DNA of 64,000 nucleotides from Pseudomonas sp. (GCF_049645325.1 NZ_JBARTQ010000245.1:4447-68446); one strand, 5' to 3'; shown: positions 1,115 through 26,415, counted from the stretch's first letter. Notes: a model not told the origin generated them from the letters alone. Numbers and translations are program-made.

Positions 1115-2173
1115 ATGAAACGCAAAGACAAAATCGCCGTCGCCGTTATCACCGTGTTTGCCGTCGGCGTGCTGGTGTACCTGGTTGCGCCGGGCCTGCT
1201 CGGCAATAAACGCCAGACCACCAACGACGCCTTCATCGCCGCCGACTTCACCCTGGTGGCGCCACGGGTGGCCGGGTTCATCAAGGAAGTGCTGGTGGAA
1301 GACAACCAGCGCGTCAAAGCCGGCCAGTTGTTGGCGCTGATCGACGACCGCGATTTTCGCGCCGCCGCCCAAGCTGCCGACGCTGACACGCTGGTGGCCC
1401 AGGCCCAACTGAAAAACGCCATCGCCACCCTTGAGCGCCAAAGCTCGGTGATCGCCCAGGCCCAGGCCACCGTGGCGGCAGACCGCGCCGAAGTGGCGTT
1501 CGCTGAACACGAGTTGAACCGCTACAACCACCTTGCCGGTGTCGGCGCGGGCACGGTGCAGAACGCGCAGCAAGCCAAGACCCGCATCGACCAGGCCACC
1601 GCGCGCCTGGCCAATGCCACGGCGGTGCTGGCCGCCGAACGCAAGCAGGTGGAAATCCTCACGGCTCAGCGCGATGCCGCCGAGGGCGGCCTCAAACGAG
1701 CCCAGGCGGCGCTGGAGATGGCCAGTTATCAGCTGTCATACACGCGCATCGTGGCCCCGGTGGACGGCATGGTCGGTGAGCGAGCGGTGCGGGTCGGCGC
1801 TTACGTGACCCCGGGCAGCAAGATCCTCGCGGTAGTGCCGTTGGCCGAGGCTTTTGTGGTGGCCAATTTCCAGGAAACGCAGCTGTCGCATATGCACGCC
1901 GGCCAAGCCGTGCAAGTGCGCGTCGACAGCCTTGACGGTGAACTGCTCAACGGCCATCTGGAAAGCCTCGCGCCGGCTACCGGCGTGACCTTTGCTTCGG
2001 TCAAACCCGACAACGCCACCGGCAACTTCACCAAGGTGGTGCAGCGCATTCCGGTGAAAATCGTGCTGGAGCCCAACCAGCCGCTGACCGAGCGCCTGCG
2101 CGTCGGCATGTCGGTGGAAGCCAGTGTCGACACCCAGCCGGTCGCGCAACAACGTGAGGTGGCGCAGCAATGA
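1115..2173 (+). CDS. HlyD/EmrA-family membrane fusion protein
   Basis: 352-aa ORF with AAGGAA just upstream. It has a single N-terminal TM (IAVAVITVFAVGVLVYLVAPG), lipoyl-like motifs (VAGFIKEVLVEDNQRVKAGQLLALID; IVAPVDGMVGER) and an Ala/Gln-rich coiled coil. Confidence 0.9.
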   Translation: MKRKDKIAVAVITVFAVGVLVYLVAPGLLGNKRQTTNDAFIAADFTLVAPRVAGFIKEVLVEDNQRVKAGQLLALIDDRDFRAAAQAADADTLVAQAQLKNAIATLERQSSVIAQAQATVAADRAEVAFAEHELNRYNHLAGVGAGTVQNAQQAKTRIDQATARLANATAVLAAERKQVEILTAQRDAAEGGLKRAQAALEMASYQLSYTRIVAPVDGMVGERAVRVGAYVTPGSKILAVVPLAEAFVVANFQETQLSHMHAGQAVQVRVDSLDGELLNGHLESLAPATGVTFASVKPDNATGNFTKVVQRIPVKIVLEPNQPLTERLRVGMSVEASVDTQPVAQQREVAQQ

Positions 2174-3624
2174 GACACTTTGCCTGGCTCACCTTGAGCC
2201 TGATCAGCCTCAGCGCCTGCACCGTCGGGCCGGACTTCCAGAAGCCTCAGGGCTCGCCAGTCACCCAGTGGAACGAACCCCAAGGCCGCCAGGCGGCCAG
2301 CCGCGCGGTCACCGACCCCTTGCAGGAGCGCTGGTGGGACGTGTTCCACGATGAGCAACTCTCGGCCCTGACGCGCCGCGCGCTCACCGACAACCTAGAC
2401 CTGAAACTCGCCAGCAGCCGCCTGCAACAAAGCCGCGCCGTGCGCCAGGTGACCACCGCCGAACGCTACCCGAACGTGAACGCCACCGGTGACTACCTGC
2501 GCCAGCGCAACAGTGCGAAGGGCTTGAGCGACCCGTCCAACAACAATGGCCAGTCCGCCTATAACCAGTGGGACATGGGTTTCTCCGCCGCCTGGGAGCT
2601 GGACTTCTGGGGCCGGGTCAAACGCGAAACCGAAGCCGCCGACGCCACCCTGCAAGTCGCCGAAAACGACCGCCGCGCGGTGTTGTTATCGGTACTCGCC
2701 GAGACGGCCCAGGACTACATCCAGCTGCGTGGCGTGCAGAACACCCGCGCCGTCACCGAGCAAAACCTCGACGTTGCGCGCCACAGCCTCAAGCTCTCGC
2801 AACTGCGCCTGGCTGACGGCGTGGCAACGGATCTGGACGTCGCCGAAGCCGCCGCCCAGGTGGCCGCCATCGAAGCGCGCCTGCCGGACTTGCAGCAGCG
2901 CCAGGACCAGTTGATCAATGCCCTGAGCCTGTTGATGGGCGCGCCACCGCAAGCGCTGCATGCGCAATTGTCCAAGGACGCCGCCGTCCCGCAAACCCAG
3001 CGCCAGGTCGCGATCGGCCTGCCGTCGGAGCTCGCTGAACGCCGCCCGGATATCCGCCAGGCCGAGGCGCGTTTGCATGCGGCCACCGCCAACATCGGTG
3101 TGGCCAAGGGCGATTTCTACCCGCGCATTACCCTGTCCGGCAGCCTCGGCTCGCAAGCCCTGCAACTCTCGGATTTCGGTTCGTGGGGCTCGCGCGCATT
3201 CGCCTTCGGCCCGCAATTCAGCCTGCCGTTGTTCAATGGCGGGCGCCTGCAAGGCATGCTCAACCTGCGCGAAGCCCAGCAACAGGAAGCGGCGCTGGCC
3301 TACCAGCAAACCGTGCTGCGCGCCTGGCATGAAATCGACGACCAACTGACCCGCTACAACGCCAGCCAACTGCGCCGCGACAGCCTCGCCGAAGCCGTGC
3401 GTCAGAACCAGATCGCGCTGACCACTGCGCAACATCAATACGTGGAAGGCGTGGTGGATTTCGTCAACGTGCTCACGGTGCAAAGCGCACTGCTGGCGAC
3501 GCAAGAACAATGGGTAGAAAGCTCCACCGGCGTGTCGCTGGCCATGGTGGGGTTGTACAAGGCGCTGGGTGGCGGGTGGGAGTCGGTGTATCCGCTGCAA
3601 ACTGCCGGAAATAAGTTGTTGTAG
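2170..3624 (+). CDS. Efflux outer-membrane factor lipoprotein (NodT/OprM family)
   Basis: 484-aa ORF. The ATGA overlap with the adaptor stop (2170-2173) indicates coupling. It has a lipobox (LISLSAC) and a two-repeat OMF sequence ending ...LYKALGGGW. Confidence 0.9.
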   Translation: MRHFAWLTLSLISLSACTVGPDFQKPQGSPVTQWNEPQGRQAASRAVTDPLQERWWDVFHDEQLSALTRRALTDNLDLKLASSRLQQSRAVRQVTTAERYPNVNATGDYLRQRNSAKGLSDPSNNNGQSAYNQWDMGFSAAWELDFWGRVKRETEAADATLQVAENDRRAVLLSVLAETAQDYIQLRGVQNTRAVTEQNLDVARHSLKLSQLRLADGVATDLDVAEAAAQVAAIEARLPDLQQRQDQLINALSLLMGAPPQALHAQLSKDAAVPQTQRQVAIGLPSELAERRPDIRQAEARLHAATANIGVAKGDFYPRITLSGSLGSQALQLSDFGSWGSRAFAFGPQFSLPLFNGGRLQGMLNLREAQQQEAALAYQQTVLRAWHEIDDQLTRYNASQLRRDSLAEAVRQNQIALTTAQHQYVEGVVDFVNVLTVQSALLATQEQWVESSTGVSLAMVGLYKALGGGWESVYPLQTAGNKLL

Positions 3625-3931: not shown

Positions 3932-4636
3932 TCAACGATTCTGCAAAAACACCACATACCCGCGAAACCACTCATTCCCTTGCAAATACCCCGGCGCCTC
4001 CCACTCCCCGCCCTGAATCAATCCGACCTTGAACGGCACGCCCAGCCGGTTCATGCGTGGCAAATACGCCGCGTAATCCGGGATGCTGTGGCGCCCTTGA
4101 TACGTTTGCACCACCACTTCATCCACCACGCCTTTGAGTTGGGCAATGGCGGCCGGATCGGCGTTGCTGCTCCAGTCCATCAGGCCGGTGATGCTCAGGC
4201 GCAGTTCAGCGGGCAGGCGTTGGCGCAGGTCGCGCAGGAAGTCGGCGTATTCATGCAGGTATTGGGTGCGGGCGTCGAAGTCGATCTGAATGCCGACCAC
4301 CGGGTTGCCCGCGTCACGCCAGCGTTGCACTTGGCCGAGCAGTTGGCTGTAGACCCGCTCGGGCCAATGCAGAGTGTGGGCGCGGTAGACCACCCAGATT
4401 TCGCCCTGTGTCAGGCGCGGCACGCTCATGCCCTGGGCGATCAATTGCACGCCGCGCTCGGGTGCGCGGCGGGTGGCGTTGATCTGGCCCTGGAGGATGT
4501 ACAGGGTTTTCGCCTGTTTGAGCACTGGCTGGGGCGTGACGCCACTCCACAGCCAGAAGGCGTCGTAGTCGCGGGCGTCGACGGCGCCGAAGGCCGGGCT
4601 TGCCAGCAACAGCAAGCCAAGCCACAGGGGCTTCAC
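3932..4636 (-). CDS. Secreted DUF3142-like protein of unknown function
   Basis: The ORF is 3932-4663. GTG 4636 overlaps the upstream gene's TGA by 4 nt (GTGA), which indicates translational coupling. There is a signal-peptide-like N-terminus (KPLWLGLLLLASPAFGA). The family call comes from recall of DUF3142 sequences (DYDAFWLW...LYILQGQI). Confidence 0.65.
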   Translation of the reverse strand: MKPLWLGLLLLASPAFGAVDARDYDAFWLWSGVTPQPVLKQAKTLYILQGQINATRRAPERGVQLIAQGMSVPRLTQGEIWVVYRAHTLHWPERVYSQLLGQVQRWRDAGNPVVGIQIDFDARTQYLHEYADFLRDLRQRLPAELRLSITGLMDWSSNADPAAIAQLKGVVDEVVVQTYQGRHSIPDYAAYLPRMNRLGVPFKVGLIQGGEWEAPGYLQGNEWFRGYVVFLQNR

Positions 4637-6798
4637 CAGTAATACTGCAGCGATTTGCCCCACTGGGTGTCGGCAAAGCCGCTTTTGAGCTGGCGGAACC
4701 AGGCTTTGCGCACGGCCGGTTCGACGTCAACGCCACCACAGCTGTTATAGCCGGACGGTGAATAGCAGTTGATGGCGCGAAACAGGGCGTAGGCCTTGTC
4801 AGTCTTCGGCGCCTTGGCGTTGGCGATCACCTGTTTGTAGCCGTCCAGCCGCGAGAAGGTTTCCCCTGGGAACTGCGAGGCGGTGCTGCCCAGGCTGCCA
4901 GCGGCGCGGGCCTGTTCCAGTGGCATGCCGTCCAGGCCATTGCGCAGGATGAACTCGCCAAAGCAGTTGAGCCCCTGCGGGTTTTTGGGATCGTTCTGCA
5001 AGGTGGCGGCGGTTTGCGCGATGCTCGGGCAGGCGTAGCCGGACTCGGCTTTGTCACCGTTCCACTGGAACAGCTTCAGGCTTTGGCCGCCGCTGTAGAC
5101 GTAGCCCAGGCTGGTGCCGAGTTTGTCGTCCGGCGCTGCCGCCGGCAATTGCTTGAGGTCGTCGGCGAAGGTGGCGAACTGGCCGCGCAGCAAATCTTTG
5201 TACAGCAGCACGAATTGCGCGGTCTGGCGTTCCACAGGGTCGCTGGCTTTGGCGATCTGCTGGCGCAGCAAATCAGGACCGGCAACGTTGCGCAGCAGGA
5301 TGTAACGCACCTGCCTGGCACTGATCGGCGAGTCGGCGGCGAACACCTTGGCCAGTTCGCCGCTGCGCTCGTAGTTCATCGCCAGGGCCAGTTCCAGTTG
5401 GTCGCGTTGCAGCGCCCATTTGGCCAGCGGCAGCAGTTGCAGCCACAGGTCCTGCGCACCTTTGACGTCTTGCTTGGCTTCGAGGGCGAGGGCGCGCAGG
5501 GTCTGCTGGCTGAAGGCGAAGTAATTGAGGCTCGACGGCACATTCTGGGGCAATTGCTTCAGGGCGGCGTCTGGCTGATGCTCGATGTACAGCGCGTTTA
5601 CGGCCAGCAAGTAGTCGTAGAGTTGCGGCTCGCCGGAGAACGCGGCTTTCTGCTTTTCCAGGTCGGCGCGGCTGAGGGCCGGCTGGCCGCCGCCGCGCAT
5701 CACCATCAGGTCGCTGACGAGCTGGATCATCGGCGTCTTGACCGTTTCACTGTTGACCATCAGCAGCTTGAGGTCAGCTTCCTCCACCAACTCATCCACG
5801 CTCACGTTGCGCTGTTCGTCCGTCGCCTGGGTCAGCTGCCAGGCATACGCCTCGGCGAGTTTGCTGTTGTCGTTGGCCAACCAGTACACCCGGCGCAACA
5901 GGCCGCGTGCCGAGGCCGCGTATTCGCCCTGTGGATAAGTTTTCAGGTAGGCGTCGAAGCCTTGCTCGGCGTCAGCCAACGCCGGCTTATCCACACGGTC
6001 GAGCTGCGGCACGCCGTCTTCGCCGTAGACATTGTCCTGGGCCAGGTTCAGCGCATTACGCGCGGTCATGTACAGCGCGGTCTCTTTCAGCCAAGGCGAA
6101 GCGGCACTCTGGGTGGCGACGAAGCCAGGCCCGGCGTAGGTAAAACGCCCGGTGTAGAAGTCGGCAGCGGCTTGCAGGTAGGTACGCAACAGCTGGCCTT
6201 CGGGCGAACTGATGTCTTGCGGCGGCTCCACGACCGGGCCCACCCATTCACACGTGGTGAGCAATTGCAGGCGCGCTTTCACCAGCAGGTCGCGTTCGGC
6301 GGTTGGGATGTCGGCGTTGATGACCTGGTTGATAAACGCGCTGGCGCTGGCCTCGTCGTTGCTGCGGCAGCGGCTGCCCTCGCCGTTGAGGAAGGCATCG
6401 CCGGCGGCTGTTTTATCGGCGCGCTGAATGCCCAGCGGCTCGATCAGTGCGTCGAGCGGGGAAGCCTTTGGCGCGTCTGCGGTATTGACCGGCTCCACTT
6501 CACCACGCGGGGCGAGGCGGTACACCGGAAACGGCACCGGGCCAAAACCCTGGGACAGGTCATCTTCGCTCAGGACGTTGGGTGTCAGCGGCGTGTTCTT
6601 TTTGTCGGCCAGCAGCAGGCGCAAGTTGACCCGGCTGTCATTGCCCGGGCTCAGGAAGGGCAGGTTGCTGCATGCGTCCAGCGTGTCACGCGACACGCGC
6701 CAGTCGGGGTAGCACGAGTCGTCCGAACTGGCCTGGGCCTGTAGGGGGATTCCGGCAAGCAGGGCCAGTGCCAGAGGTGACAGAAAACCGATGCGCAT
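4633..6798 (-). CDS. Large secreted hypothetical protein (~721 aa) with a BamD/YbgF-like TPR-type segment
   Basis: The ORF is 4633-6876. I prefer ATG 6798 because AAGGA lies 7 nt upstream and the N-terminus is a clear signal peptide (MRIGFLSPLALALLAGIPLQAQA). The protein is Cys-containing and shows coding-like compositional bias. No named family was recognised. Confidence 0.7.
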   Translation of the reverse strand: MRIGFLSPLALALLAGIPLQAQASSDDSCYPDWRVSRDTLDACSNLPFLSPGNDSRVNLRLLLADKKNTPLTPNVLSEDDLSQGFGPVPFPVYRLAPRGEVEPVNTADAPKASPLDALIEPLGIQRADKTAAGDAFLNGEGSRCRSNDEASASAFINQVINADIPTAERDLLVKARLQLLTTCEWVGPVVEPPQDISSPEGQLLRTYLQAAADFYTGRFTYAGPGFVATQSAASPWLKETALYMTARNALNLAQDNVYGEDGVPQLDRVDKPALADAEQGFDAYLKTYPQGEYAASARGLLRRVYWLANDNSKLAEAYAWQLTQATDEQRNVSVDELVEEADLKLLMVNSETVKTPMIQLVSDLMVMRGGGQPALSRADLEKQKAAFSGEPQLYDYLLAVNALYIEHQPDAALKQLPQNVPSSLNYFAFSQQTLRALALEAKQDVKGAQDLWLQLLPLAKWALQRDQLELALAMNYERSGELAKVFAADSPISARQVRYILLRNVAGPDLLRQQIAKASDPVERQTAQFVLLYKDLLRGQFATFADDLKQLPAAAPDDKLGTSLGYVYSGGQSLKLFQWNGDKAESGYACPSIAQTAATLQNDPKNPQGLNCFGEFILRNGLDGMPLEQARAAGSLGSTASQFPGETFSRLDGYKQVIANAKAPKTDKAYALFRAINCYSPSGYNSCGGVDVEPAVRKAWFRQLKSGFADTQWGKSLQYYW

Positions 6799-6957: not shown

Positions 6958-7731
6958 ATGAAGCAATTGCGAATAGGGATGTTGAGTCTTGCCTGCCTGA
7001 TGGGCTTGGCCTTTGTGGCCAGGGCGGACGACCCGCTGCTGGATCATCCGCCAGTGCCTGCTGCCGGCAATGACAGTGACGCGCGAGGCGTACTGCGCGC
7101 CCGTGACCAAGCGATGCTGGCCAGCGAGTTGTCGGGGCGCATCGTCGAATTGCCCTTCAGCGAAGGCGAGTCGTTCAAAAAGGGCGACACCCTGGCGCGT
7201 TTCGATTGTTCGGCCTACCAGGCCCAGCTGAATGCCGCCCAGGCCGCCAGCCGTGGCGCCGGTGAAGAGCTGGCCCACAACAAGCAACTGGCCGCGCTCA
7301 ATTCCGTGGGGCGTTTTGAAGTGGCCCGCGCCGAAGCCAAGCTCACCGAAACCCAGGCCCAGTCGCAGGTTTACCAGGTGCAGGTCAAGCGTTGCAGCGT
7401 GCTGGCGCCGTATGACGGCCAGGTCGTGCAGCGCAAGGTCCAACGTTATGAAAGCGTGTCGGCCGGGGCGCCGCTGTTGGAAATCGTCGACAACCGCAGC
7501 CTGGAAATCCACCTGCTGGTGCCGTCGCGCTGGATGAGCAAGCTCAAGCCGGGGCAGACGTTCAACTTCACCCCCGATGAAACCGGCCAGGCGTTCAGCG
7601 CTACGGTCAAACGCCTCGGCGCCCGTATTGATGAGGGCAGCCAGACCTTGTTGCTGGTCGCTAGCTTGCCCAACGCTGCAGGCCTGATGGCCGGCATGAG
7701 CGGCACCGCCCACTTTGCGCAACTGCAATGA
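6958..7731 (+). CDS. Periplasmic HlyD-family adaptor with a cleavable signal peptide
   Basis: 257 aa with GGAGG upstream and a signal peptide (MKQLRIGMLSLACLMGLAFVARA). It carries lipoyl motifs (LSGRIVELPFSEGESFKKGDTLARFD; VLAPYDGQVVQRKV) and a short coiled coil. Confidence 0.85.
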   Translation: MKQLRIGMLSLACLMGLAFVARADDPLLDHPPVPAAGNDSDARGVLRARDQAMLASELSGRIVELPFSEGESFKKGDTLARFDCSAYQAQLNAAQAASRGAGEELAHNKQLAALNSVGRFEVARAEAKLTETQAQSQVYQVQVKRCSVLAPYDGQVVQRKVQRYESVSAGAPLLEIVDNRSLEIHLLVPSRWMSKLKPGQTFNFTPDETGQAFSATVKRLGARIDEGSQTLLLVASLPNAAGLMAGMSGTAHFAQLQ

Positions 7732-9047
7732 ATGCACCGATGCCGGGCAACACTGAACGCGTGTTTGCGCAGTTCCTCGACCTTGAGCGCCAGACCCGCG
7801 CCGCGCGCACCACCGAGCAACTGGCCTACAGCCTGGTGAATGACGGCCAGCCGTTGTTCGGCTATCGCCATGCCGCGCTGTTGATCGCTGGCAAAGTGCA
7901 GGCGGTGACGGCGGTGAGCAGCGTTGATCCGAACGCGCCGTTTGTAGCCTTTGTCGAGCAGGCCGTCGCGCAGTTGCACAAACAGGCGTTGAGCCAGACC
8001 GCCCGCGTGGTGCCGGCTGAACTATTGAGCGACGCGCTGCAAGCCGACTGGCAGAGTTTGTCCGCTGGCCAGGTGTTCTGGTTGCCATTGATAGACCCGC
8101 AAGGCCGTGTTTTCGGCGGCCTGTGGATTGCACGGGACACGCCCTGGAACCCGGCCGAGCACGTACTGCTGGCGCAGTTGGGCGACACTTACAGCCACGC
8201 CTGGCTTGCGCTGCAGCCGCGCCAGCCGTGGCGGTTGCGCCTGACGCGCAAGCGCCAGGTGGCCGTGGTGGTCGCGCTGCTATTGATGTTGCTGATTCCG
8301 GTGCGCCAATCGGTGCTGGCACCCGCTGAAGTGGTGCCGCTGGCCGGGCAAGTGGTGGCGGCGCCGTTGGATGGAGTGATTGCCGAATTTCTGGTCAAAC
8401 CCAACCAGTCGGTGAAAACCGGCGACCTGCTGCTGCGCTTCGAAAGCACCACGCTTACCGCCCAGGCTGACGTAGCGGCGCGGGCCTTGGGCGTGGCCGA
8501 AGCAGAGCTGAAGGCCAACGCCCAGCGGGCGTTCGCCGATGCCGAATCGAGTTCGCGCATCGACCTGCTCGCCGCGCGGGTCGAGCAAAAGCGCGCCGAG
8601 CGCGACTACGCCCGCGAACTGCTCAAACGCAGCGAAGTGCGCGCCGAGCGCGACGGCATCGCCGTGTTCGCCGACGCCGAACGCTGGACCGGCAAGCCTG
8701 TGCAAACCGGCGAGCGCCTGCTGCAGATTGCCGACCCTGGCCAAGCCGAATTGCGCATCGAATTGGCCGTGGGCGATGCGATTGCCCTTGAGCCCAATGC
8801 CCAAGTGGCGCTGTTCCTCGACAGCGATCCGCTGCAACGTCACCTGGCAACCCTGCAACGCGCAGCGTATGAAGCGCAGCCCACACCGGGCGGCCAGTTG
8901 GCCTATCGCCTGGACGCGCAGTTCGACGAAGCGCCGCCGCGTATCGGCCTGCGTGGCACGGCGAAGATTTTCGGTGACCGCGCGCCGCTGGCGCTGTACC
9001 TGCTGCGCCGACCGCTGGCCGGCCTGCGCCAGAGCGTTGGTCTCTGA
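7728..9047 (+). CDS. HlyD-family adaptor with a ~170-aa cytoplasmic GAF-like N-terminal domain and one TM
   Basis: 439 aa with an ATGA overlap with the upstream stop. The N-terminal soluble domain (...VFWLPLIDPQGRVFGGLWIARDTPW...) is followed by a TM (VAVVVALLLMLLIPV) and HlyD motifs (VAAPLDGVIAEFLVKPNQSVKTGDLLLRFE; VRAERDGIAVF). Confidence 0.8.
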   Translation: MNAPMPGNTERVFAQFLDLERQTRAARTTEQLAYSLVNDGQPLFGYRHAALLIAGKVQAVTAVSSVDPNAPFVAFVEQAVAQLHKQALSQTARVVPAELLSDALQADWQSLSAGQVFWLPLIDPQGRVFGGLWIARDTPWNPAEHVLLAQLGDTYSHAWLALQPRQPWRLRLTRKRQVAVVVALLLMLLIPVRQSVLAPAEVVPLAGQVVAAPLDGVIAEFLVKPNQSVKTGDLLLRFESTTLTAQADVAARALGVAEAELKANAQRAFADAESSSRIDLLAARVEQKRAERDYARELLKRSEVRAERDGIAVFADAERWTGKPVQTGERLLQIADPGQAELRIELAVGDAIALEPNAQVALFLDSDPLQRHLATLQRAAYEAQPTPGGQLAYRLDAQFDEAPPRIGLRGTAKIFGDRAPLALYLLRRPLAGLRQSVGL

Positions 9048-11143
9048 TGAACCTGCCCAAACTGCGTGAAGACTTGCAGCTGTCCAGCGCCGGCGCGGCC
9101 CTGGACGGCTCGCCGCGCTGGACCTTGGCCGACCCGGTGCGCGGGCGCTATTTCAAGCTCGGCGCAAGTGCTATTCGCTTGCTGCGGCATTGGTCCCTGG
9201 GCGACCCGGAAAAAGTCCTGCAAGCCGCCAACCGCGAGCCGGGCTTGCCCTTGGGTGGCAGCGAAGTGGATGAGCTGTTGAGCTTTCTGCGCGCCCACGA
9301 CCTGATCGCTGCCCTCGACCCGGAACAGCGCGCCAGCTATGTCTATAAAGCCGCCGCGCAAAAACACAGCTTGTGGCAGGTGCTGCTGCATCAATACTTG
9401 TTTTTCCGCATTCCGCTGTGGCGCCCGGATGCTTTTCTGAACCGGGCGTGGCCGTGGTTGGCGCGCTTCGGGCCGGGTTTGCTGCGGTACGGGCTGCCGA
9501 CAGTGTTGGTGCTCGGCGTGTTTCTGGTCGCGCGAGATTGGCAGCGCTTTCTGGCGACCTTTCCGCATTTGTTCAGCCTGGGCGGTGCCCTGGCGTTCGG
9601 TGTGGCGCTGTTCTTTGCCAAGCTGTGCCATGAATTCGGCCATGCCTTCATGGCCAAGCGCGCCGGGTGCCGGGTGCAGAGCATGGGCGTTGCGTTCATG
9701 GTGCTGCTGCCGATGTTCTACACCGACGTGAGTGACGCTTGGCGCGTCAATGACCGTCGCGCGCGGCTGATGATCGGTGCCGGCGGGGTGATGGCCGAGT
9801 TGTTGCTGGCGTGCATCGCCCTGCTGGCCTGGTCGCTGTTGCCGGACGGCCCGGCGCGCACGGCGGCGTTCATGCTGGCGAGCGCCACCTGGCTGACGAC
9901 GCTGGCGATCAACCTCAACCCGTTCATGCGCTTTGATGGTTACTTCCTGATCAGTGATCTGTGGGGTGTGGATAACCTGCAAGCTCGCGCCTTTGCGTTG
10001 TGCCGCTGGCGTTTGCGTGAGCTGCTGTTCGGCTATGGCGAGCCGGCGCCGGAGCCGTGGTCGCCGGTGATGCAGCGGCGGTTGTTGGCGTGGGGCTACC
10101 TGGCGTGGCTGTGGCGCGCGGCGCTGTTTTTGGGCATCGCATTGGCGGTGTATCACCTGTTCTTCAAGTTGCTCGGGATCTTCCTGATGCTGGTGGAATT
10201 GGTGTGGTTCATCTTCCTGCCGATCTTCAAGGAATGGCGCGAATGGTGGAGCCGCCGCAGCCAGGCCCATGCACCTCGGGTATTACTCAGCAGCCTGGGT
10301 TTGGTGCTGATCGTGCTGGCGCTGGTGGTGCCATGGCGCAGCGCAGTGGAGTTGCCGACCATGCTCGAAGCCGGGCGCGCCAGTGCGCTGCATGCGCCGG
10401 TGGCGGCGCGGGTCAAGGCGTTACACGTGGTGGACGGGCAGGTGGTGACCCAGGGGCAGGTGCTGATCGAGCTGGAGTCGCCGGACCTGGACGCGCGGCA
10501 AAGCATCGTGCGCCGCGAAGTCGACATTCTGCAGTTGCAGATGCGCCGTCAGGCCGGGCGCAGTGAAACGGCGGCGGATGCCGGCATCAATGATCAGCGC
10601 CTGTCCCAGGCCCTGGCGGAATACCGTGGCCTGGCTGCCCAGCGCGAACGCCTGCTGCTGCGCGCACCTCATGCCGGCACCGTGCGCGATGTGCTGCCGC
10701 AATTGAGCGTGGGCCGTTGGCTGTCGCCCAAGGACCCGCTGGCGCAAGTGGTGGAAGAGGGCGCACGCCTGCGTGGTTACGTGGCGGAGGCCGAATTATG
10801 GCGCGTGGCGCCGGGGGCGACCGGGCGGTTTATTGCCGATGACCCGATGCACGCGGCTATCTCGGTGGAGTTGACGGATATCGACGCCAACGGCGTGGCC
10901 TACCTGGACCAGGAGGCGCTGACCTCTGACCACCACGGGCCGATTGCCGTGCGCCGGGATGAAAATCAGCGCCCGGAGCCGGTGCAGGCCCAGTACGGCG
11001 CACGGTTGAAAAGCCTGCAAGCGATCGAGACGCCCCGTCAGCCGCTGCGTGGCGTGACGGTGTTGCAAGGGCGCAGTGAATCGGTGCTGGGCGTGGCCTG
11101 GCGACGTGCGGCGGCGTTGGGCGTGCGGGAAAGCGGGTTCTGA
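9047..11143 (+). CDS. Fusion protein: PqqD/RRE-like N-terminal domain, polytopic M50 (site-2-protease family) zinc metalloprotease, and a C-terminal HlyD adaptor domain
   Basis: 698 aa with a TGATG overlap with the upstream stop. HEFGH is at 9629-9643 and NPFMRFDG at 9917-9940, the two M50 signature motifs, both embedded in TM segments. The C-terminal third has HlyD lipoyl motifs (VKALHVVDGQVVTQGQVLIELE; LRAPHAGTVRDV) and a coiled coil. The RRE call for the N-terminal ~100 aa is pattern-based only. Confidence 0.8.
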   Translation: MNLPKLREDLQLSSAGAALDGSPRWTLADPVRGRYFKLGASAIRLLRHWSLGDPEKVLQAANREPGLPLGGSEVDELLSFLRAHDLIAALDPEQRASYVYKAAAQKHSLWQVLLHQYLFFRIPLWRPDAFLNRAWPWLARFGPGLLRYGLPTVLVLGVFLVARDWQRFLATFPHLFSLGGALAFGVALFFAKLCHEFGHAFMAKRAGCRVQSMGVAFMVLLPMFYTDVSDAWRVNDRRARLMIGAGGVMAELLLACIALLAWSLLPDGPARTAAFMLASATWLTTLAINLNPFMRFDGYFLISDLWGVDNLQARAFALCRWRLRELLFGYGEPAPEPWSPVMQRRLLAWGYLAWLWRAALFLGIALAVYHLFFKLLGIFLMLVELVWFIFLPIFKEWREWWSRRSQAHAPRVLLSSLGLVLIVLALVVPWRSAVELPTMLEAGRASALHAPVAARVKALHVVDGQVVTQGQVLIELESPDLDARQSIVRREVDILQLQMRRQAGRSETAADAGINDQRLSQALAEYRGLAAQRERLLLRAPHAGTVRDVLPQLSVGRWLSPKDPLAQVVEEGARLRGYVAEAELWRVAPGATGRFIADDPMHAAISVELTDIDANGVAYLDQEALTSDHHGPIAVRRDENQRPEPVQAQYGARLKSLQAIETPRQPLRGVTVLQGRSESVLGVAWRRAAALGVRESGF

Positions 11144-11158
11144 CAGGAGTTGAACACA

Positions 11159-11674
11159 ATGTTGAAAAAGGAGGGCGCCTTGGCGCAAGGCCTGGTGGTG
11201 CGCCCGTCACACAGCGCAGACGGGCCCTTTTTGCAGGGCCTGTACCGCTCGGCGCGCGCGGATCTGCAGTGGATCGACGGCGAGCAGGCGCTGGTCGAGG
11301 AGGTGATCGCCCAGCAATTCCAGGTGCAGGAAAAGGGCATGGATGAGCATTTTCCTGGCGCCCTGCACTACGTGATCGAGAAACTGGGCACGCCCATTGG
11401 CGCGTTGAGCGCTGACTTCGGGCCCAATGAAATCCGCGTGCTGTACCTGGCGTTTATCCCCGCCGCGCGAGGCCAGGGTTTTGGTCGTGCGGTACTGCAA
11501 GGCGTGCAGCAGGCCGCTGTGCAGGTGGTGTGCCCGGTGACCACGGTGGTGTGGGCGAGTAACCCCCACGCGCGCCAGCATTACCTGGCGCTGGGGTTTC
11601 GTGTGGAGCAAGAGACGCCCGCCGCGCAGCGCTTGGTGTGGTACCCGTCTCAGTTGAACACGATGCAGAAGTAG
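11159..11674 (+). CDS. GNAT-family N-acetyltransferase
   Basis: AGGAG lies 9 nt upstream of ATG 11159. The acetyl-CoA-binding-type motif is present (LAFIPAARGQGFGRAVLQGV). About 171 aa. Confidence 0.75.
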   Translation: MLKKEGALAQGLVVRPSHSADGPFLQGLYRSARADLQWIDGEQALVEEVIAQQFQVQEKGMDEHFPGALHYVIEKLGTPIGALSADFGPNEIRVLYLAFIPAARGQGFGRAVLQGVQQAAVQVVCPVTTVVWASNPHARQHYLALGFRVEQETPAAQRLVWYPSQLNTMQK

Positions 11675-12007: not shown

Positions 12008-12598
12008 TTAGTTGCGCGATGGAAAGATCCCGTTCAAGGCAATGCTGAAGTTGATCGCCAGGTAGGGGTTCATGGTCGCCATGGGCTGACCTTGGCCGGC
12101 GGGGCTGATCGCGCCTCCGCTGACGGCGGTGCTGACGCCCTGCAGGGCCACCGGCGTGGCGCCCTGTTGGTCGGAATAGATCGCAGCACTGCCCGGCCCG
12201 GCGCCTGACGCGCCGATAAATGAGTTGGTGGCGGTGGGTAAGGTCACTGGGTTGCTGGCGGGCACCGCCAGTTGCACGGCGGTGGCGACAGTGATCGGCG
12301 TCATGGCATGCGTGTGGTTGGGAAGATTAAGCAGCGTAGCGGTCACCGACTCCGTGCCCGAGACCTCGCCGATGACCCGCGTCGACAGGCCCGCGCCGGC
12401 GCCCTGGCCGATGGGCATGCGACCTTGCAGGTTCGGCAGCATGAAGGTCGTTGTGCCATTGCCGCCGTAAATGATGCCGAGCAGCGAATAAAGCGCCTGG
12501 TACTGGCTGAGCGGCAAGGTTTGACCGGCGCACAGGGCCCAGTCTCTGGGGGCGAAATCAAACGCAAAGGGTTGGATGGTGCCAATGAAAACTTCCAT
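12008..12598 (-). CDS. Phage tail collar domain protein (MdpB / microcystin-dependent-protein family)
   Basis: 196 aa. It has the hallmark N-terminus (MEVFIGTIQPFAFDFAPRDWALCAGQTLPLSQYQALYSLLG..YGG.G.TTFMLPNLQGR.PIGQG) and C-terminus (MNPYLAINFSIALNGIFPSRN). Confidence 0.9.
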   Translation of the reverse strand: MEVFIGTIQPFAFDFAPRDWALCAGQTLPLSQYQALYSLLGIIYGGNGTTTFMLPNLQGRMPIGQGAGAGLSTRVIGEVSGTESVTATLLNLPNHTHAMTPITVATAVQLAVPASNPVTLPTATNSFIGASGAGPGSAAIYSDQQGATPVALQGVSTAVSGGAISPAGQGQPMATMNPYLAINFSIALNGIFPSRN

Positions 12599-12798: not shown

Positions 12799-14412
12799 GT
12801 GCGACGGTCTGTGGTAGAACAAGACGACAAAGTGGCGGCATTTCCCGCAGTCAATCGCCTTTCGGGGGCTTGGGAAGGCGCCGGCTGGCTCAGCCGGTTA
12901 TGGTGGGTGCCGATCCTGGCGCTGGCCATGGCCGCGCGCTTCTATGGCCTGACGGCGGCGGCGATCTGGGGTGACGAAGGCTCGAGCCTGCTGCTCAGCG
13001 AATACGCCATGGACGACCTGTGGTTTCACGCCGCCCATGATGTGCACCCGCCGCTGTATTTCTTCATGCTGCGTGGCTGGATCGAGGTATTTGGCGACAG
13101 CATCTGGTCGATTCGGGGCATGAGCGCCATTCCCGGTGTGGTCGCGGTGGGCCTGGGCATCTGGCTGACGCGCACGCTGTCGACCCGGCGCGCCGCCCTG
13201 CTGGCAGGCGTGCTGCTGGCGCTGTTTCCCACCGCGGTGCGTTACAGCCAGGAAGTGCGGATGTACTCGCTGCTGGCCGTGTGGTTGCTGGGCGCCACGC
13301 TCGCGCTGGTGTACTGGGTGCGCCAGCCTGCGCGCACGCGGTACCTGGCGGTTTACGTGCTGCTGATGGCTGCCGGGTTCTACACCCATTACTTCACAGC
13401 GTTGTGCGTGCTGGTGCATTGGCTCTATCTGGGGCTGTTATGCACCTGCCAGGCACCGGGCCAACGCTTGATTATCCGCCCGTCGTGGTGGTGCGCAAAT
13501 ACCGCGATTGTGGCGTTATACCTGCCCTGGCTGCCGAACCTGCTTGACTTGACCCAGCACATTGATCAGCTCAAGGTCGGCGGTGACATAGGGTGGGAAG
13601 ACCCGGTTTCGCTTATTTCCGTACCGTCGATGATCTGGCAGTTCACGCTTCAGGATGAAGGCATTGGTTTCTGGCCGCCGTTGTTCTGGCTGTTCCCACT
13701 GCTCTTGATCGCTGTCGTGGTTATTACTGCGTGGCGTGATCACGATCGCTATCGTCCGGCTTGCCTGATGGCGTTGTTCCTCCTGCTGCCACTGCTGCTG
13801 GTATACGGGGTTTCGTTTATTTCCCCGGTCTTTATCGAGCGCTATCTCACCGTATACGCGCTGGGTTTGCCGCTCCTGCTGGCGCTGGCCATCGATCGTC
13901 TGCCCAAACGCCTTTCGTGGCTGGGCGCAGTGTTGTTTGTGCTATTTGTCGGTGTGGAGCTGCTGGGGTTGAAGAACAACGCCACCGTGGACGTGCATAA
14001 TCAATTCAATGTGCCGGTAGAGTTCGTTAACCGCAATTATCAGGAGGACGACCGTATCGTCCTCAGCGACATGCTGTGGTACCTCCCCTACGTGTATTAC
14101 GACCAGACCGACGCGCAATTGCAGCTATACACGCCGCCCAAACCCGACGGCACATCAACGCGGCCAAACGCCTATGGCTTTGGCACCCTGGTGGACCAGG
14201 ACGGCGGCCGCATTTACCTTGACCGCCTTTCGGCATTGCCGGCGGATACACGTCGCGTCTGGCTGATCAGCAGCAACGAAATGCCGGACGATTTCGCGCC
14301 GATTCCCGAAGGCTGGCGACAATTGTTGCAGCAGGACGGTGGCGGTGCGCGGGCACGGTTATTTGTACTGTGCCGCGGGCCAGAGCCCTCGCAGCCTGAG
14401 GGCTGCCACTAA
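12799..14412 (+). CDS. Glycosyltransferase family 39 (PMT_2/ArnT-like, polyprenyl-phosphate-sugar dependent) membrane protein
   Basis: The ORF is 12697-14412. GTG 12799 is preferred because AGGGGA lies upstream. The protein is polytopic with a loop-1 DE motif (IWGDEGSS; GAC GAA at 12973-12978) and HPPLYFFMLRGW, followed by a ~150-aa C-terminal soluble domain. The start is uncertain by about 12 nt or more. Confidence 0.8.
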   Translation: MRRSVVEQDDKVAAFPAVNRLSGAWEGAGWLSRLWWVPILALAMAARFYGLTAAAIWGDEGSSLLLSEYAMDDLWFHAAHDVHPPLYFFMLRGWIEVFGDSIWSIRGMSAIPGVVAVGLGIWLTRTLSTRRAALLAGVLLALFPTAVRYSQEVRMYSLLAVWLLGATLALVYWVRQPARTRYLAVYVLLMAAGFYTHYFTALCVLVHWLYLGLLCTCQAPGQRLIIRPSWWCANTAIVALYLPWLPNLLDLTQHIDQLKVGGDIGWEDPVSLISVPSMIWQFTLQDEGIGFWPPLFWLFPLLLIAVVVITAWRDHDRYRPACLMALFLLLPLLLVYGVSFISPVFIERYLTVYALGLPLLLALAIDRLPKRLSWLGAVLFVLFVGVELLGLKNNATVDVHNQFNVPVEFVNRNYQEDDRIVLSDMLWYLPYVYYDQTDAQLQLYTPPKPDGTSTRPNAYGFGTLVDQDGGRIYLDRLSALPADTRRVWLISSNEMPDDFAPIPEGWRQLLQQDGGGARARLFVLCRGPEPSQPEGCH

Positions 14413-14518: not shown

Positions 14519-15364
14519 GTGGTGAACGGATTGCAGTATCACTTCATCTCGGGTTTGCCGCGTTCCGGATCGACCCTGCTCTCTGCCATTTTGTTGCAGA
14601 ACCCGCGTTTTCACGCGGGCATGACCAGCCCGGTGGGGTCACTGTTCTGCAGCGTACTGGACCAGTGCAGCGCGGGCAGTGAGTTCGGCGCGGTGATCGA
14701 TACCCACATGCGCCGTCGCCTTCTGCGCGGCCTGTTCGACTCCTATTACGCTGACAAGGCCGATAAACCGGTGGTGTTCGACACCAACCGCCTGTGGAGC
14801 TCGCGTCTTCCGGCCATCAATGATCTGTTCCCTCAGGCCAAGGTCATCGCCTGCGTGCGCAATGTTGCGTGGGTCATGGACAGCCTGGAGCGTCTGTACC
14901 GCGCCAACCCCTTCGAAAACACCAAACTGTTCGTTGATGCCGCCGAACGCAACACGGTCTACAGCCGTTGCGAAACCCTCGCCCAGCGCAACCGCCTGGT
15001 CGGGTTTGCGTGGGCAGCGCTCAAGGAAGCCTATTACGGCGAGCACGCCGACTCCCTGTTGATCATCGATTACGACTTGTTGAGCCAAGCACCGGAGCGG
15101 GTCATGCGCTTGGTGTATGACTTCATCGACGAACCGTGGTTTGAACACGATTTCGACAACCTTGCCTACGACGCGCCGGCGTTTGACCAGGCGTTGGGTG
15201 TCTCGGGCTTGCATAAGGTCCAGCCCAAGGTCCGCTTGCAAACGCGCCGCACCATCTTGCCACCTGACCTGTTCCAGCAGTATGCCGAACTGTCGTTTTG
15301 GCTGGACGGGTCAGCCAGCGCCGCCAATGTAATCCGTATGAAGGCCGACGCCGCGATCAGTTGA
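14519..15364 (+). CDS. PAPS-dependent sulfotransferase (Sulfotransfer_3/TPST-like motifs)
   Basis: The 5'-PSB-like motif GLPRSGSTLL is at 14558-14581 and the 3'-PB-like motif VRNVAWVMDS at 14855-14884. The ORF is open from 14339, but its first ~60 codons overlap or follow the GT39 3' end and look non-coding. The start is therefore uncertain (GTG 14519/14522 or TTG 14531). Confidence 0.8.
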   Translation: MVNGLQYHFISGLPRSGSTLLSAILLQNPRFHAGMTSPVGSLFCSVLDQCSAGSEFGAVIDTHMRRRLLRGLFDSYYADKADKPVVFDTNRLWSSRLPAINDLFPQAKVIACVRNVAWVMDSLERLYRANPFENTKLFVDAAERNTVYSRCETLAQRNRLVGFAWAALKEAYYGEHADSLLIIDYDLLSQAPERVMRLVYDFIDEPWFEHDFDNLAYDAPAFDQALGVSGLHKVQPKVRLQTRRTILPPDLFQQYAELSFWLDGSASAANVIRMKADAAIS

Positions 15365-15413
15365 TCGCGGCGTTTCTTTTCCCTCAAAGAACGTTCGACC
15401 CCGGGTGAGCCGC

Positions 15414-18400
15414 ATGTGGTGGAGCAATCGCAAGTCGCGGGGTACGCAAGCCTTACAGGCGCGGGTCTCGCCAATGATCATGCACCTGGAACCGCGCATG
15501 CTGTTCGACGGCGCAGTCGCCGCCACCGTGGCCGAAGCGGCGCAACCTGACAGCCATCCCACCGCCGACGCCGCCAAGCCGCCCACAGCCGATCACCCGA
15601 CCGTGAGCAAAGACACCCACGGCCAGGCCGATGCGCCTGCCGTTTCACCTGTGGCCGTGCCCGGGCAAACCGTGTTGTTTGTGGACGCCCGAGTCAAAGA
15701 CTCCGCCAGCTTGTTGCAAGGCGTGGCGCCGGGTACCCAGGTGGTCCAGCTGGACGCGAGCAAAGACGGCCTGCAGCAAATTGCCGACTACCTCGACACC
15801 CATCAGGGCGTCAGCTCGGTGCAGGTCATTGCCCATGGCAACGCGGGCGATCTCTGGCTCGGCACCACCTACCTGTCGGCCGACAACGTCGCGGCGCGCA
15901 GCGCGGTGCTGGGGCAGATCGGCAAAGACATGAACGTCGGCGGCGACATCCTGATCTACGCCTGCTACACCGCAGAAGGCCAGCGTGGCGTGGACTTTGT
16001 CGACTCGCTCGCCGCGTTGACCGGCCGCGATGTCGCAGCGTCCACTAACCGCACCGGCGTGGGTGGCGACTGGAACCTCGAAATCGCCACCGGCAGCATT
16101 GAAAGCGCCAATGTGCTCTCGACCAAAGCCATGAGCGAGTATCAGTGGGGACTGGCCACCTGGACCGCCACCAACAACCTCGACAGCGGGGCCAATTCCC
16201 TGCGTGCGGAACTGGCCCTGGCGCAGAACGGTGACATCGTCACGTTCAGTGCATCAATGACGGTTAATTTGAACAGTGAGTTGCTGGTCAACAAAAACAT
16301 CACGATCGATGGCGACCTTAACAACGACGGCGTTGCCGACGTCACGTTGAGCGGCCAGTACAAAACCCGGGTGATTGAAGTGGCGTCCGGCAGCACCGTA
16401 GTGCTGGATGGCTTGGTGATCACCAAGGGCTTGGCAGCCGGCGACGGTGCCAACAGTGGTTTCACCGCCGGTAACGCGTTGGGCGGCGGTATTTTGAACG
16501 CCGGCAACCTGACCCTGAGAAACGTCACCGTGACCGCCAATGCGGCGTCGGGCGGCGGTGGCGGCGGTGGCGTGACCCCAATTTACGCCGGCGGCTCCGG
16601 CGGCGGCGGTGGCGGGGTGGGTGGCGCTGGCGGCGGCAGCGGCGGTAACACGACAGCCCAAGGGCGGCCGACGTATTTTGGTACGGCTGGCGGCTCAGGC
16701 GCCGGTGGCATCGGCGGCAGCTATGACTCGGTCCACCTCGGTGGCCGAGGCGGCGCAGTCAGCGGTGCCGGCGGTACAGGCGGCACGTCGGGTGCGTCGG
16801 GCTACAGCGTTGGCGGCAACGGCGGCACCGCGGGCATCGGCGGTATCACCGTGGGCGGCGGCGGTGGCGGCTCGGGTTGGAACAAAGTCGGTGGCATCGG
16901 TGGCTCTGCCGCTGGCGGCATCTACAACTCCGGCACACTCACCGTGGTTGGCACTTCGCACATCACCGGCAACATTGCGGCTGGGGGCGGTGGCGGCGGT
17001 GGCGGCGGGTTGGCGAGCTATGGCGGGAGCGTCGACAACGGCGGTGCCGCAGGCCAGGGTATCGGCGGCATCTGGAACAAAGGCACGTTGCTGATCACGG
17101 CTGCCAACTTTTCGGCCTTGAGCGGTAACGTCGGTGGCAGCGGCTCGGGTGGCGGCGCCTCGGGTGGCGGTACCAATGGCAGCAGCCCGACGGCGGTTAC
17201 CAACTTGCGTAACGACGGCACCCTCAATCAAAACTTTATCGAACCGCCGACCGCAACCATCGTGGTGGCGGACACGACGTTGTCCATCGGCGAGACCTCG
17301 TTGGTGACCATCACCTTCAGCACGGCGGTGACCGGTTTCACCAACGCTGACCTGACTGTCGCCAACGGCAGCCTGTCGGCGGTCAGCAGCGGCGACGGCG
17401 GGATCACCTGGACCGCGACCTTCACGCCCAACTCGGCCATCAGCGACAACACCAACCTCATCACCCTGGATAACACCGGGGTGCAAAGCGTCACCGGCAG
17501 CGTGGTGGGCGTTGGTACCAGCGAATCCAACAACTATATCGTTGACACCATAAGGCCCACGGCATCCATCGTGGTGGCGGACACCTCATTGGTAATCGGT
17601 GAAACCTCGTTGGTCACCATTACCTTCAGCGAAGCGGTGACCGGCTTCACCAATGCCGACCTGACCATTGCCAACGGCACCCTGAGTAATGTCTCGTCCT
17701 CTGACGGCGGCACTACCTGGACCGCGACCCTCACGCCCACCTCCAGCGTCAACGACGCCACCAACCTCATCACCCTGAATAACAGCGGGGTCAACGACAT
17801 CGCGGGCAATGCCGGCTCGGGCAATACGGATTCAAACAATTACGCAGTCAATACTGTGCGCCCTACGGCAACGGTGGTGGTCGCCGACACCGTCCTGGCG
17901 ATTGGCGAAACATCGCTGGTGACCATTACGTTCAGCGAGGCCGTGACCGGCTTCACCACCGCCGACCTGACTGTCGCAAACGGCAGCGTCTCGGGTTTGA
18001 GCAGCAGCGACGGCGGTGTCACCTGGACCGGCACGTTAACGCCGACCAACAGCATCACTGACACCACCAACGTGGTGACGCTGGACAATACCGGTGTCAG
18101 CAACCAAGCCGGTAACGCCGGCTCCGGGAGTACCAACTCCAATAACTACGCGGTCGATACACAGCGTCCTACCGCAACGGTCCTGGTCGCCAACTCCAGC
18201 CTGGCGATTGGTCAATCGTCGCAAGTGACTATTACCTTCTCGGAGGCGGTGAGCGGGTTCACCAATGCCGACCTGACCGTCGCTAACGGTTCATTGAGCG
18301 CCGTCAGCAGCAGCGATGGCGGCATCACGTGGACGGCGACCCTGACGCCCAGCGCTGCCGTGACGGACAGTACCAACCTGATCACGCTGACCAACAGCGG

Positions 18401-24850: not shown

Positions 24851-24854
24851 CCTG

Positions 24855-25968: not shown

Positions 25969-26415
25969 GTGTCTCAAACCCTCGAACAACTCCAGATGAA
26001 CCTCAGCAGCAGCATGGTGGTGGGCGCCCGTAACTGGCGCAAAATCTGCCAGACCACGCTGGTGAGCTATGGAATTTCCGAAGCCTGCGCCGTGCCGTTG
26101 CTGATGATCGGGCGCTTGGGCGACGGGGTGCATCAGGTAAAAGTCGCCCAGGCGTCCGGGATGGAAAGCCCGTCGCTGGTGCGCCTGCTCGACCAGCTGT
26201 GCGCGGGCGGCTATGTGTGCCGCACCGAAGACGTACACGACCGCCGCGCCAAGGCCTTGAGCCTCACCGAGCGTGGCCGTGAGCTGGTGCACGCGGTGGA
26301 AGTGCAACTGGTGCGCCTGCGCCAGGAAGTACTGGCCGACATCGCCCACGATGACCTTGAAGCCGCGCTGCGCGTACTGCGAGCCTTCGAAGCGGCCGAG
26401 GTGATGACCCCTTGA
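25969..26415 (+). CDS. MarR-family transcriptional regulator
   Basis: 148 aa with a GTG start. The winged-helix region is present (HQVKVAQASGMESPSLVRLLDQLCAGGYVCRTEDVHDRRAKALSLTERG). It is the first gene of the FUSC efflux operon and overlaps the next gene by 4 nt. Confidence 0.85.
   Translation: MSQTLEQLQMNLSSSMVVGARNWRKICQTTLVSYGISEACAVPLLMIGRLGDGVHQVKVAQASGMESPSLVRLLDQLCAGGYVCRTEDVHDRRAKALSLTERGRELVHAVEVQLVRLRQEVLADIAHDDLEAALRVLRAFEAAEVMTP

Follow-up and report, generated by a model that had tools for sequence, protein, structure and literature searches.

What can a set of periplasmic adaptors do when no pump is encoded beside them? The question is raised by three genes, here called A, B and C, at positions 6958–11143 of a 64,000-nucleotide stretch of DNA from Pseudomonas sp. 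(GCF_049645325.1, NZ_JBARTQ010000245.1:4447–68446). We call the whole stretch the window and count positions from its first letter. A previous reading of this DNA (the original prediction) took the operon for a leader-recognizing intramembrane protease fused to an envelope adaptor with no obvious energy source, a reading that stands after our analysis, and placed it in a peptide-maturation setting with no substrate named. We find that the conserved system has five genes rather than three: A, B, C, the gene of a TolC-family outer-membrane factor (OMF), and the gene of a giant repeat protein that is the probable substrate. In the interpretation that we favor, with a probability of roughly 0.55, these five components form an envelope-spanning system, with A, B and C as its core at the inner membrane and in the periplasm, that processes and exports its dedicated giant substrate in the manner of a type I secretion system (T1SS), with protein C, a leader-binding protease fused to an adaptor, in the place of the ATP-binding cassette (ABC) transporter.

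Genes A (6958–7731), B (7728–9047) and C (9047–11143) all lie on the + strand and are joined by the stop/start overlaps ATGA (7728–7731) and TGATG (9045–9049), which we checked base by base. Independent gene calls in a public assembly of the same sequence give identical A, B and C, and the best homologues, with 94–95% identity, belong to species of the Pseudomonas fluorescens group. The Pfam family HlyD_3 is matched by A (E = 2e-19), B (E = 6e-15) and C (E = 4e-11), which together with the reading frames and overlaps confirms the three coupled genes with HlyD-type domains that had been described. Protein A (257 aa) is a periplasmic adaptor of the HlyD or membrane fusion protein (MFP) type that also passes the RND_mfp model TIGR01730 (133.6 bits against a cutoff of 94.9). 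Its hydrophobic residues 3–21 are followed by A-R-A|DD, and residues ~1–23 are read as a Sec signal peptide cleaved at ARA|DD, in keeping with the secreted adaptor of the original prediction. Protein B (439 aa) consists of a domain of ~170 residues (predicted GAF fold, ~7749–8213), a single transmembrane (TM) segment found by a TM scan at about residues 178–196 (~8259–8315), and an HlyD/MFP domain (~8325–9044). Protein C (698 aa) begins with a predicted winged helix like that of PqqD and other RiPP recognition elements (RREs; RiPP, a ribosomally synthesized peptide with post-translational modifications) at 9047–9316. It continues with a polytopic M50 protease core (~9464–10231) and, in the same TM scan, has a last TM segment (~10280–10336) ahead of its periplasmic HlyD/MFP domain (~10337–11140). 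The positive-inside pattern, the TM scan and the structures of site-2 proteases (S2Ps) suggest that the RRE and the HExxH and N..FDG motifs face the cytoplasmic side and that C's HlyD domain lies in the periplasm. None of the three has a model of its own in NCBIfam, and databases name these genes "biotin/lipoyl-binding protein", "HlyD family efflux transporter periplasmic adaptor subunit" or, at JGI, "putative peptide zinc metalloprotease".

Because Pfam searches with the isolated residues 1–141 of C and 1–177 of B gave no match even at E ≤ 10, to PqqD (PF05402) and GAF among others, we examined the folds of both N-terminal domains by structure prediction. The domains were modeled with AlphaFold2 from diverse alignments and then compared with the Protein Data Bank (PDB) by Foldseek. 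The model of C residues 1–140 has a mean pLDDT of 88, above 90 for residues 1–90, and its elements follow the order b1-b2-b3-a1-a2-a3, as in PqqD-type RREs. Its nine top PDB matches are all RREs, eight with a probability of 0.97–1.00 and the ninth with 0.89, and from the tenth match onward the probability is at most 0.21. They include TbiB1 and a lasso-peptide B1 protein, both solved with bound leaders, and the sactisynthase structures 5wgg and 5why; the standalone RRE proteins reach TM-scores of 0.66–0.68 (target-normalized), with 22–23% identity for TbiB1. These matches support the prediction of a PqqD-type RRE fold in C, which the strand and helix pattern had suggested earlier. For B, the model of residues 1–172 (pLDDT 88.4, predicted TM-score 0.82) has 124 PDB matches at E ≤ 1e-3, mostly GAF domains of phytochromes and other sensors, with query-normalized TM-scores of ~0.5–0.66. 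One B homologue carries a precomputed PF01590 (GAF) annotation, and the domain is kept in all loci of the genome survey described below. A GAF fold is thus supported, at the level of a model, for the whole domain, which goes beyond the last strands for which the likeness had originally been claimed.

The M50 core of C is directly recognizable, scoring 32.2 bits with Peptidase_M50 (PF02163) against a gathering score of 27.2. Both active-site motifs, HEFGH (9629–9643) and NPFMRFDG (9917–9940), were verified base by base and are present as first reported. In 40 relatives with 35–63% identity, H195, E196, H199, N289, F296, D297 and G298 are invariant, so that HExxH and N..FDG are fully kept, as are residues of the N-terminal domain including R7 and D29. 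When 1.84 billion representative proteins were searched exhaustively, the C family yielded 2,731 clusters (50% identity) at E ≤ 1e-30; among the best 150, almost all have a length of ~700 aa and align from end to end. From this end-to-end alignment and the invariant motifs, the RRE-M50-HlyD fusion reads as an old, conserved architecture with its active site intact. When the sequence of C was searched against the PDB, only marginal matches to MFPs and to the MJ0392 S2P were found. Membership in the M50 family, together with a weak match to RseP (E = 0.08), could be taken to mean that C is a regulatory S2P that cleaves a signaling protein such as an anti-sigma factor, the HlyD domains being mere scaffolds. 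We consider this very improbable, since C has neither sigma or anti-sigma neighbors nor a PDZ domain, and its association with three MFP paralogues, an OMF and a giant exported-type protein favors transport.

The partners of C emerged from a survey of 80 genome loci, one genome per species, that were chosen via gene C and whose flanking genes were defined by unbiased clustering of all open reading frames (ORFs). They span Alpha-, Beta- and Gammaproteobacteria, Nitrospirota and other lineages, and come from Pseudomonas, Stutzerimonas, Marinobacterium, Pectobacterium, Phytobacter, Rhodospirillales, Rhizobiales, Burkholderiales, Nitrosomonas, Methylococcaceae, Nitrospira, Desulfobulbaceae and Pelagibacter. 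Wherever a locus is long enough, A and B (with its GAF domain) stand, essentially without exception, directly upstream of C in unchanged order, and the constancy of this order in essentially all 80 loci of distant phyla is far beyond chance. Profiling the neighborhood of the fusion gene, a step that the original prediction had proposed, also revealed two further families on the same strand, a ~520-aa protein in 43 loci and a giant protein (median ~1,700 aa) in 39. The first is a TolC-family OMF. All 45 cassette-adjacent OMFs examined are closer to the product of 23336–24850 (+) in the window (OEP, E = 5e-39) than to the other two OMFs of the window. The TolC-family gene that had been noted at a distance from the operon is thereby raised to the cognate OMF. 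The second family is homologous to the 2,629-aa ORF at 15405–23294 (+), whose gene, placed at 15414–23294, is the one directly ahead of this OMF gene.

The arrangement of the five genes varies among lineages. The window has A-B-C-GNAT-(Collar)-glycosyltransferase-sulfotransferase-giant-OMF, and the OMF gene follows the giant gene in Pseudomonas-type loci. The order is giant-OMF-A-B-C in Cupriavidus, Pectobacterium, others, and in a second type of locus in some Pseudomonas; OMF-A-B-C-giant in Nitrospira; giant-A-B-C in Pelagibacter; and A-B-C-GNAT-Collar-giant in P. indica. The giant gene can also lie inside the cassette, as OMF-A-giant-B-C in two metagenome loci (L143, L144) and as OMF-A-giant in five more (L136, L151, L153, L158, L160). 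Pseudomonas sp. C11 (L035) and Irchel 3E13 (L057) carry a divergent second system, compact and in the order giant-OMF-A-B-C, with a C protein ~42% identical to that of the window, which indicates two types of the system within Pseudomonas.

The same linkage appears from the opposite direction. We seeded a reverse survey of 80 metagenome loci not with gene C but with the N-terminal module of the giant, that is, its LEPR leader motif plus DUF4347. Among loci of at least 12 kb, 50 of 54 contain a cassette gene (A, B, C or OMF), and among those of at least 18 kb, 31 of 33 do; when only the more distant matches of at least 12 kb are counted, the proportion is 22 of 26. Since the linkage of cassette and LEPR giant is seen from either seed, it holds in both directions and does not depend on the choice of loci.

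These neighborhoods also bear on the peptide setting in which the operon had originally been placed, namely a device for the maturation and export of a RiPP or other small peptide whose precursor gene lies elsewhere. The RRE fold of C fits such a device, as do the JGI family name and the similarity of C to RiPP proteases. The daptide HExxH protease model NF041824 matches C over residues 32–390, spanning both RRE and M50 core, with E = 1.4e-43, yet at 149.5 bits it stays under the cutoff of 300, and the match to the YydH/LiaK model NF058609 is weak (26.9 bits, cutoff 225). Against it stands the absence of any conserved small precursor ORF or RiPP-modifying enzyme in the 80 genome and 80 metagenome neighborhoods, in which the conserved partners are the giant and the OMF, and the presence of the cassette in a streamlined Pelagibacter genome. 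In the window, the spacer upstream of A (~159 bp if the divergent PA5441-family gene begins at Met-27) holds no credible small ORF, as had been stated; the small ORFs there are shadow ORFs overlapping the divergent gene. The peptide framing is not supported, and we now attach very little weight to it.

The giant protein of the window begins with a basic leader, in which the motif LEPRMLFDG (15486–15512) is unique in the six-frame translation of the 64 kb, and continues with DUF4347 (~15672–16148; Pfam, E = 8e-49) and 18 Ig-like repeats of the Big_12 family. The 13 giants with a visible N-terminus, which come from six lineages, share with the window's giant a Lys/Arg-rich stretch, then LE(P/Q)R(I/M/L)(L/M/V)(F/L)D(G/A), then an Ala/Val-rich segment, and in an eight-lineage alignment the leader residues L28, E29, R31 and D35 are invariant. 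The NCBIfam model NF012209, LEPR-XLL (24 residues, cutoff 17 bits), scores 19.1 bits with the Methylococcaceae giant and 16.0 with that of Nitrospira. A double-glycine-type leader was considered and rejected because the Gly after the motif is variable.

DUF4347 lies 40–60 residues behind the LEPR motif in all five giants tested (E = 1e-49 to 1e-60) and in that of the window. Across eight lineages it has an invariant H144-G145 and an invariant C187 within Y(G/A)C, and the Pelagibacter copy matches Peptidase_C80 weakly (E = 0.007). The His/Cys pair may be of the caspase or cysteine protease domain (CPD) type, and these features raise the possibility that DUF4347 is an autoprotease that trims the secreted giant. 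We note that DUF4347 also exists on its own. PDB entry 9qpe contains, as chain G of a multi-chain assembly, a standalone DUF4347 protein of 201 aa, and PA0256 of P. aeruginosa, a small DUF4347 protein, was reported as an Hcp-dependent candidate type VI secretion system (T6SS) effector (PMC8262886). Chain G is probably a standalone T6SS effector of the PA0256 type; 9qpe was rejected as a solved complex of the present system, because it matches the window sequence only at E = 0.5 and B has no match in it. The occurrence of DUF4347 in the giants and in PA0256 places one domain in two unrelated secretion contexts.

At the other end, the window's giant carries the conserved motif GAPTLGQQLQQL (within 23100–23294). 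The giants of Pseudomonas, Azospirillum, Cupriavidus and Methylococcaceae have in common, at the C-terminus, G(A/K)Pxx(S/T)xQLxx with a short amphipathic helix behind it, a motif that could be a second targeting or anchoring signal.

In the window no ABC, resistance-nodulation-division (RND) or major facilitator superfamily (MFS) gene adjoins A-B-C, as was originally noted, and the giant and OMF genes likewise have no ABC gene beside them; no ATPase is a conserved neighbor among the 80 genome loci, and no RND or MFS transporter appears among their conserved neighbor clusters. ORFs with the ABC signature, defined as Walker A plus LSGGQ within 10 kb of the cassette, are found in 15 of the 80 loci, so that orthologues do not invariably sit beside a conventional pump. 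These ORFs lie mostly 8–9 kb away, in inconsistent positions, and are largely of one unrelated 300-aa type; their cluster (c4) was rejected as a hidden energizer for its inconsistent position and its restriction to 15 of 80 loci. Genes for an AAA+ protein, DUF6638 and DUF2333 located 3′ of C were likewise rejected as parts of the system, being confined to 3–5 loci of one lineage. They belong to a group of five genes after C in Rhizobiales-like metagenome-assembled genomes (L033, L037, L039, L044, L066), encoding a coiled-coil protein, an unclassified protein, a 634-aa AAA+ ATPase, DUF6638 and DUF2333; this group may form a system of its own or serve as an accessory particular to that lineage.

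It is conceivable that the pump has simply been displaced and that an ABC transporter from another part of the genome serves A, B, C and the OMF, C acting only as accessory leader peptidase and adaptor. Tripartite systems are established as having an energized inner-membrane transporter (for a review, see PMC8277102), and the 15 loci with ABC-like ORFs could be counted on the same side. The several kilobases and shifting positions that separate most of these ORFs from the cassette, their largely unrelated type, and a cassette that is compact and self-contained from Pelagibacter to Nitrospira make this quite unlikely in our view. A different use of a remote transporter would be retention and release: the giant would be exported C-terminus first by an unlinked T1SS or another route, the RRE of C would hold its leader at the inner membrane with the chain threaded through the MFP/OMF tunnel, and a GAF-controlled M50 cut would free the adhesin, much as in LapA/LapG/LapD. 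The conserved C-terminal motif could then be the secretion signal, and the cassette's lack of an ATPase, the cytoplasmic GAF sensor built into the complex and the resemblance of Ig-repeat substrates to adhesins would all find a place. The proposal needs an ABC transporter, which is not a linked neighbor in any consistent way over 160 loci; it leaves the cassette with its own OMF and three MFPs, a full periplasmic and outer-membrane conduit of the T1SS kind; and the giant gave no match to RTX (repeats-in-toxin) or other known C-terminal domains of T1SS substrates. We judge it unlikely, though worth keeping in mind.

For the five-component export system that we prefer, we infer the following steps, which concern the binding of LEPR by the RRE, cleavage by the M50 site, passage through the complex, its stoichiometry and the role of the GAF domain. 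Synthesized in the cytoplasm, the giant would carry a short basic leader that has LE(P/Q)RxxFD(G/A) at its end. By analogy with the way in which RREs dock RiPP leaders, the cytoplasmic RRE of C would dock the LEPR leader as an added β-strand, and the M50 site, facing the cytoplasmic side, would remove it. The HlyD-type domains of A, B and C may assemble into a mixed periplasmic sleeve coupled to the trimeric OMF, and the unfolded giant would reach the cell surface by way of this conduit. A ligand-controlled gate is the likely role of B's cytoplasmic GAF domain. In Pseudomonas, the GNAT protein, the glycosyltransferase, the sulfotransferase and the adenylyl-sulfate (APS) kinase encoded nearby may also modify the product. 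As for energy, we can only speculate that folding of the Ig-like repeats outside the cell might act as a ratchet.

Several points weigh against this scheme. To our knowledge, there is no precedent for a 2,600-aa protein crossing the inner membrane without an ATPase or a transporter driven by the proton-motive force, and the cassette encodes no energy source. The C-terminal motif could be a conventional T1SS signal, read by an ABC transporter whose gene lies at another site. A hydrophobic helix, typical of classical S2P substrates, is missing from the leader, and the window's giant scores 14.6 bits (E = 0.019) with NF012209, just under the cutoff of 17. For the RRE, Foldseek gives only modest E-values (2.5e-3), though the probability is 1.00. 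In the window, giant and OMF genes lie 4–12 kb from A-B-C with other genes between, and 4 of the 54 long LEPR loci have no cassette gene within 10 kb. Beyond co-location and folds, the scheme as a whole is reached by inference. We would go further only tentatively, and at odds clearly short of even, to the proposal that this is a hitherto unrecognized Gram-negative secretion class in which an RRE-S2P-adaptor works with a GAF-adaptor, a soluble adaptor and also a TolC-like channel to recognize the LEPR-XLL leader of giants, remove it and export these proteins without any ATPase.

Comparison with known machines shows which parts of the system are familiar. The T1SSs of giant adhesins and toxins (LapA-LapEBC, SiiE-SiiCDF, HlyA-HlyBD-TolC) likewise place a dedicated TolC-family OMF and HlyD-type MFPs beside a giant Ig-repeat surface protein, a combination that implies a conduit. 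The present system differs in that no ABC transporter or other ATPase is encoded alongside, in having three different MFP paralogues rather than one, in an N-terminal signal (LEPR-XLL plus DUF4347) rather than a C-terminal one of the RTX type, and in the RRE-M50 protease that forms its inner-membrane part. The peptidase-containing ABC transporters that export bacteriocins and microcins follow the same logic, with a cytoplasm-facing leader peptidase of the C39 family fused to the export machinery and, in Gram-negative bacteria, an MFP and TolC. Here, in contrast, a zinc-dependent M50 protease with an RRE replaces the C39 cysteine protease and is fused to an MFP instead of an ABC protein; the substrate is a protein of ~1,300–2,600 aa, and its leader is not of the double-glycine type. 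Neither a C39 domain nor an ABC domain is among the domain matches of A, B and C.

The M50 core of C is homologous to M50 proteases of RiPP leaders, among them the daptide MpaP type (NF041824), YydH/EpeP/LiaK (NF058609), TglG and TmoG; in the daptide case the RRE region is homologous too. RiPP leaders are removed by such M50 proteases, one of which, EpeP, is believed both to cleave and to export its peptide (PMC10885120). C has in addition a C-terminal TM segment and HlyD domain, and its scores are below the cutoffs of these families. Precursors and modifying enzymes, including daptide-type neighbors and a radical-SAM epimerase, are absent here, and the partners are instead an OMF, two MFPs and a giant. 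With PqqD-type RREs (TbiB1, lasso B1, the N-domains of sactisynthases) the N-terminal domain of C shares the predicted fold and order of elements; it differs in having no Pfam PqqD match, in its fusion to a membrane protease and in its presumed ligand, the leader of the giant.

Two further comparisons concern the sorting and release of surface proteins. In the GlyGly-CTERM/rhombosortase and PEP-CTERM/exosortase pairs, a short terminal signal on many large surface proteins is genomically paired with a membrane-embedded enzyme. The signal of the giants differs in being N-terminal and having no TM helix, and the M50 enzyme differs in its fusion to an envelope adaptor and in having an OMF as a companion. 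A possible analogy also exists with LapD/LapG and LapA, where a cytoplasmic sensor of the nucleotide type (a degenerate EAL domain in LapD, GAF here) governs proteolysis of the N-terminus of a giant adhesin. LapG, however, is a periplasmic cysteine protease that acts on a periplasmic retention module, and no homologue of LapD or LapG is found here. The defense-system finder PADLOC returned zero matches, so that this is not a known defense system, and promoter and terminator scans were uninformative.

Several accessory genes accompany the five conserved ones in the window. A GNAT acetyltransferase (11159–11674, +; Acetyltransf_1, E = 1e-8) starts 16 nt past the stop of C and keeps this position in Pseudomonas, Stutzerimonas and Marinobacterium loci. 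This spacing and conservation suggest that the transcription unit probably holds at least four genes, with GNAT as the fourth; the A-B-C operon described originally is real, and the limit of three genes is what probably does not hold. GNAT is a lineage-specific accessory of Pseudomonadaceae and close relatives. A second syntenic accessory, encoded at 12008–12598 on the − strand, is a 196-aa protein with a phage-tail-collar domain (PF07484, E = 8e-26) and no LEPR motif. Such Collar genes separate cassette and giant in 14 of the genome loci and also in many from metagenomes, with Pectobacterium and Marinobacterium among the examples. In many Gammaproteobacteria (L012–L016, L041, L117–L156) the protein, ~190–200 aa long, is often encoded on the same strand directly 5′ of the giant and is sometimes duplicated.

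A PMT_2-family glycosyltransferase (12799–14412, +, from the gene call; PF13231, E = 1e-11) is syntenic in Pseudomonas-type loci, and a sulfotransferase gene (14519–15364, +; Sulfotransfer_3, E = 2e-14) stands directly 5′ of the giant. The latter adjoins the giant in most Pseudomonas-type loci and in some distant metagenome loci. An APS kinase gene follows the OMF gene (24663–25445, +; NF003013, 193.9 bits against a cutoff of 163); the match begins at residue 62 of the product, and the true start is probably near 24846. The kinase would supply 3′-phosphoadenosine 5′-phosphosulfate (PAPS) to the sulfotransferase. The placement of glycosyltransferase and sulfotransferase genes before the giant, and of the APS kinase gene after the OMF, suggests that the giant, or a co-exported polymer, is glycosylated and sulfated.

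Elsewhere in the window, an HlyD and OEP pair (1115–3624), preceded by a 315-aa ORF (152–1099) without a family match, and a set of FUSC (AaeB-like), HlyD and OEP genes (26412–31022) are efflux modules unrelated to the cassette, which explains why the window has three OMF genes. Divergent from the operon, positions 3932–6798 (−) encode a PA5441-family protein (NF053584, 984 bits; labeled type IV pilus-related in NCBIfam) and a DUF3142 protein, a pair that recurs at one other locus (L018). The segment 48001–54000 has a G+C content of 0.45–0.53, compared with ~0.63 elsewhere, and switches in GC skew; it is probably a horizontally acquired island.

In the full-text literature available outside subscription-only papers, we found no description of the system and no connection drawn between M50-HlyD fusions, LEPR-XLL and DUF4347 giants, and LEPR-XLL is mentioned in only two papers. 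If our reading is right, the LEPR-XLL signal, so far only an annotation label, would gain a cognate machine, and a likely route of secretion or processing would be at hand for a large class of giants in environmentally dominant bacteria such as SAR11, Nitrospira, nitrifiers and plant-associated Pseudomonas. RiPP-type leader recognition by RREs would then cover not just small peptides but also proteins thousands of residues long, and the question would arise of how an MFP/OMF conduit can work with a protease instead of an energized transporter. Should the ATPase-free class prove true as well, it would give a function at one stroke to the orphan LEPR-XLL signal, to the DUF4347 giants and to thousands of M50 fusion genes now named "HlyD/biotin-lipoyl", from SAR11 to Nitrospira and Pseudomonas. 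The system is widespread and uncharacterized, and it can be tested in genetically tractable Pseudomonas.

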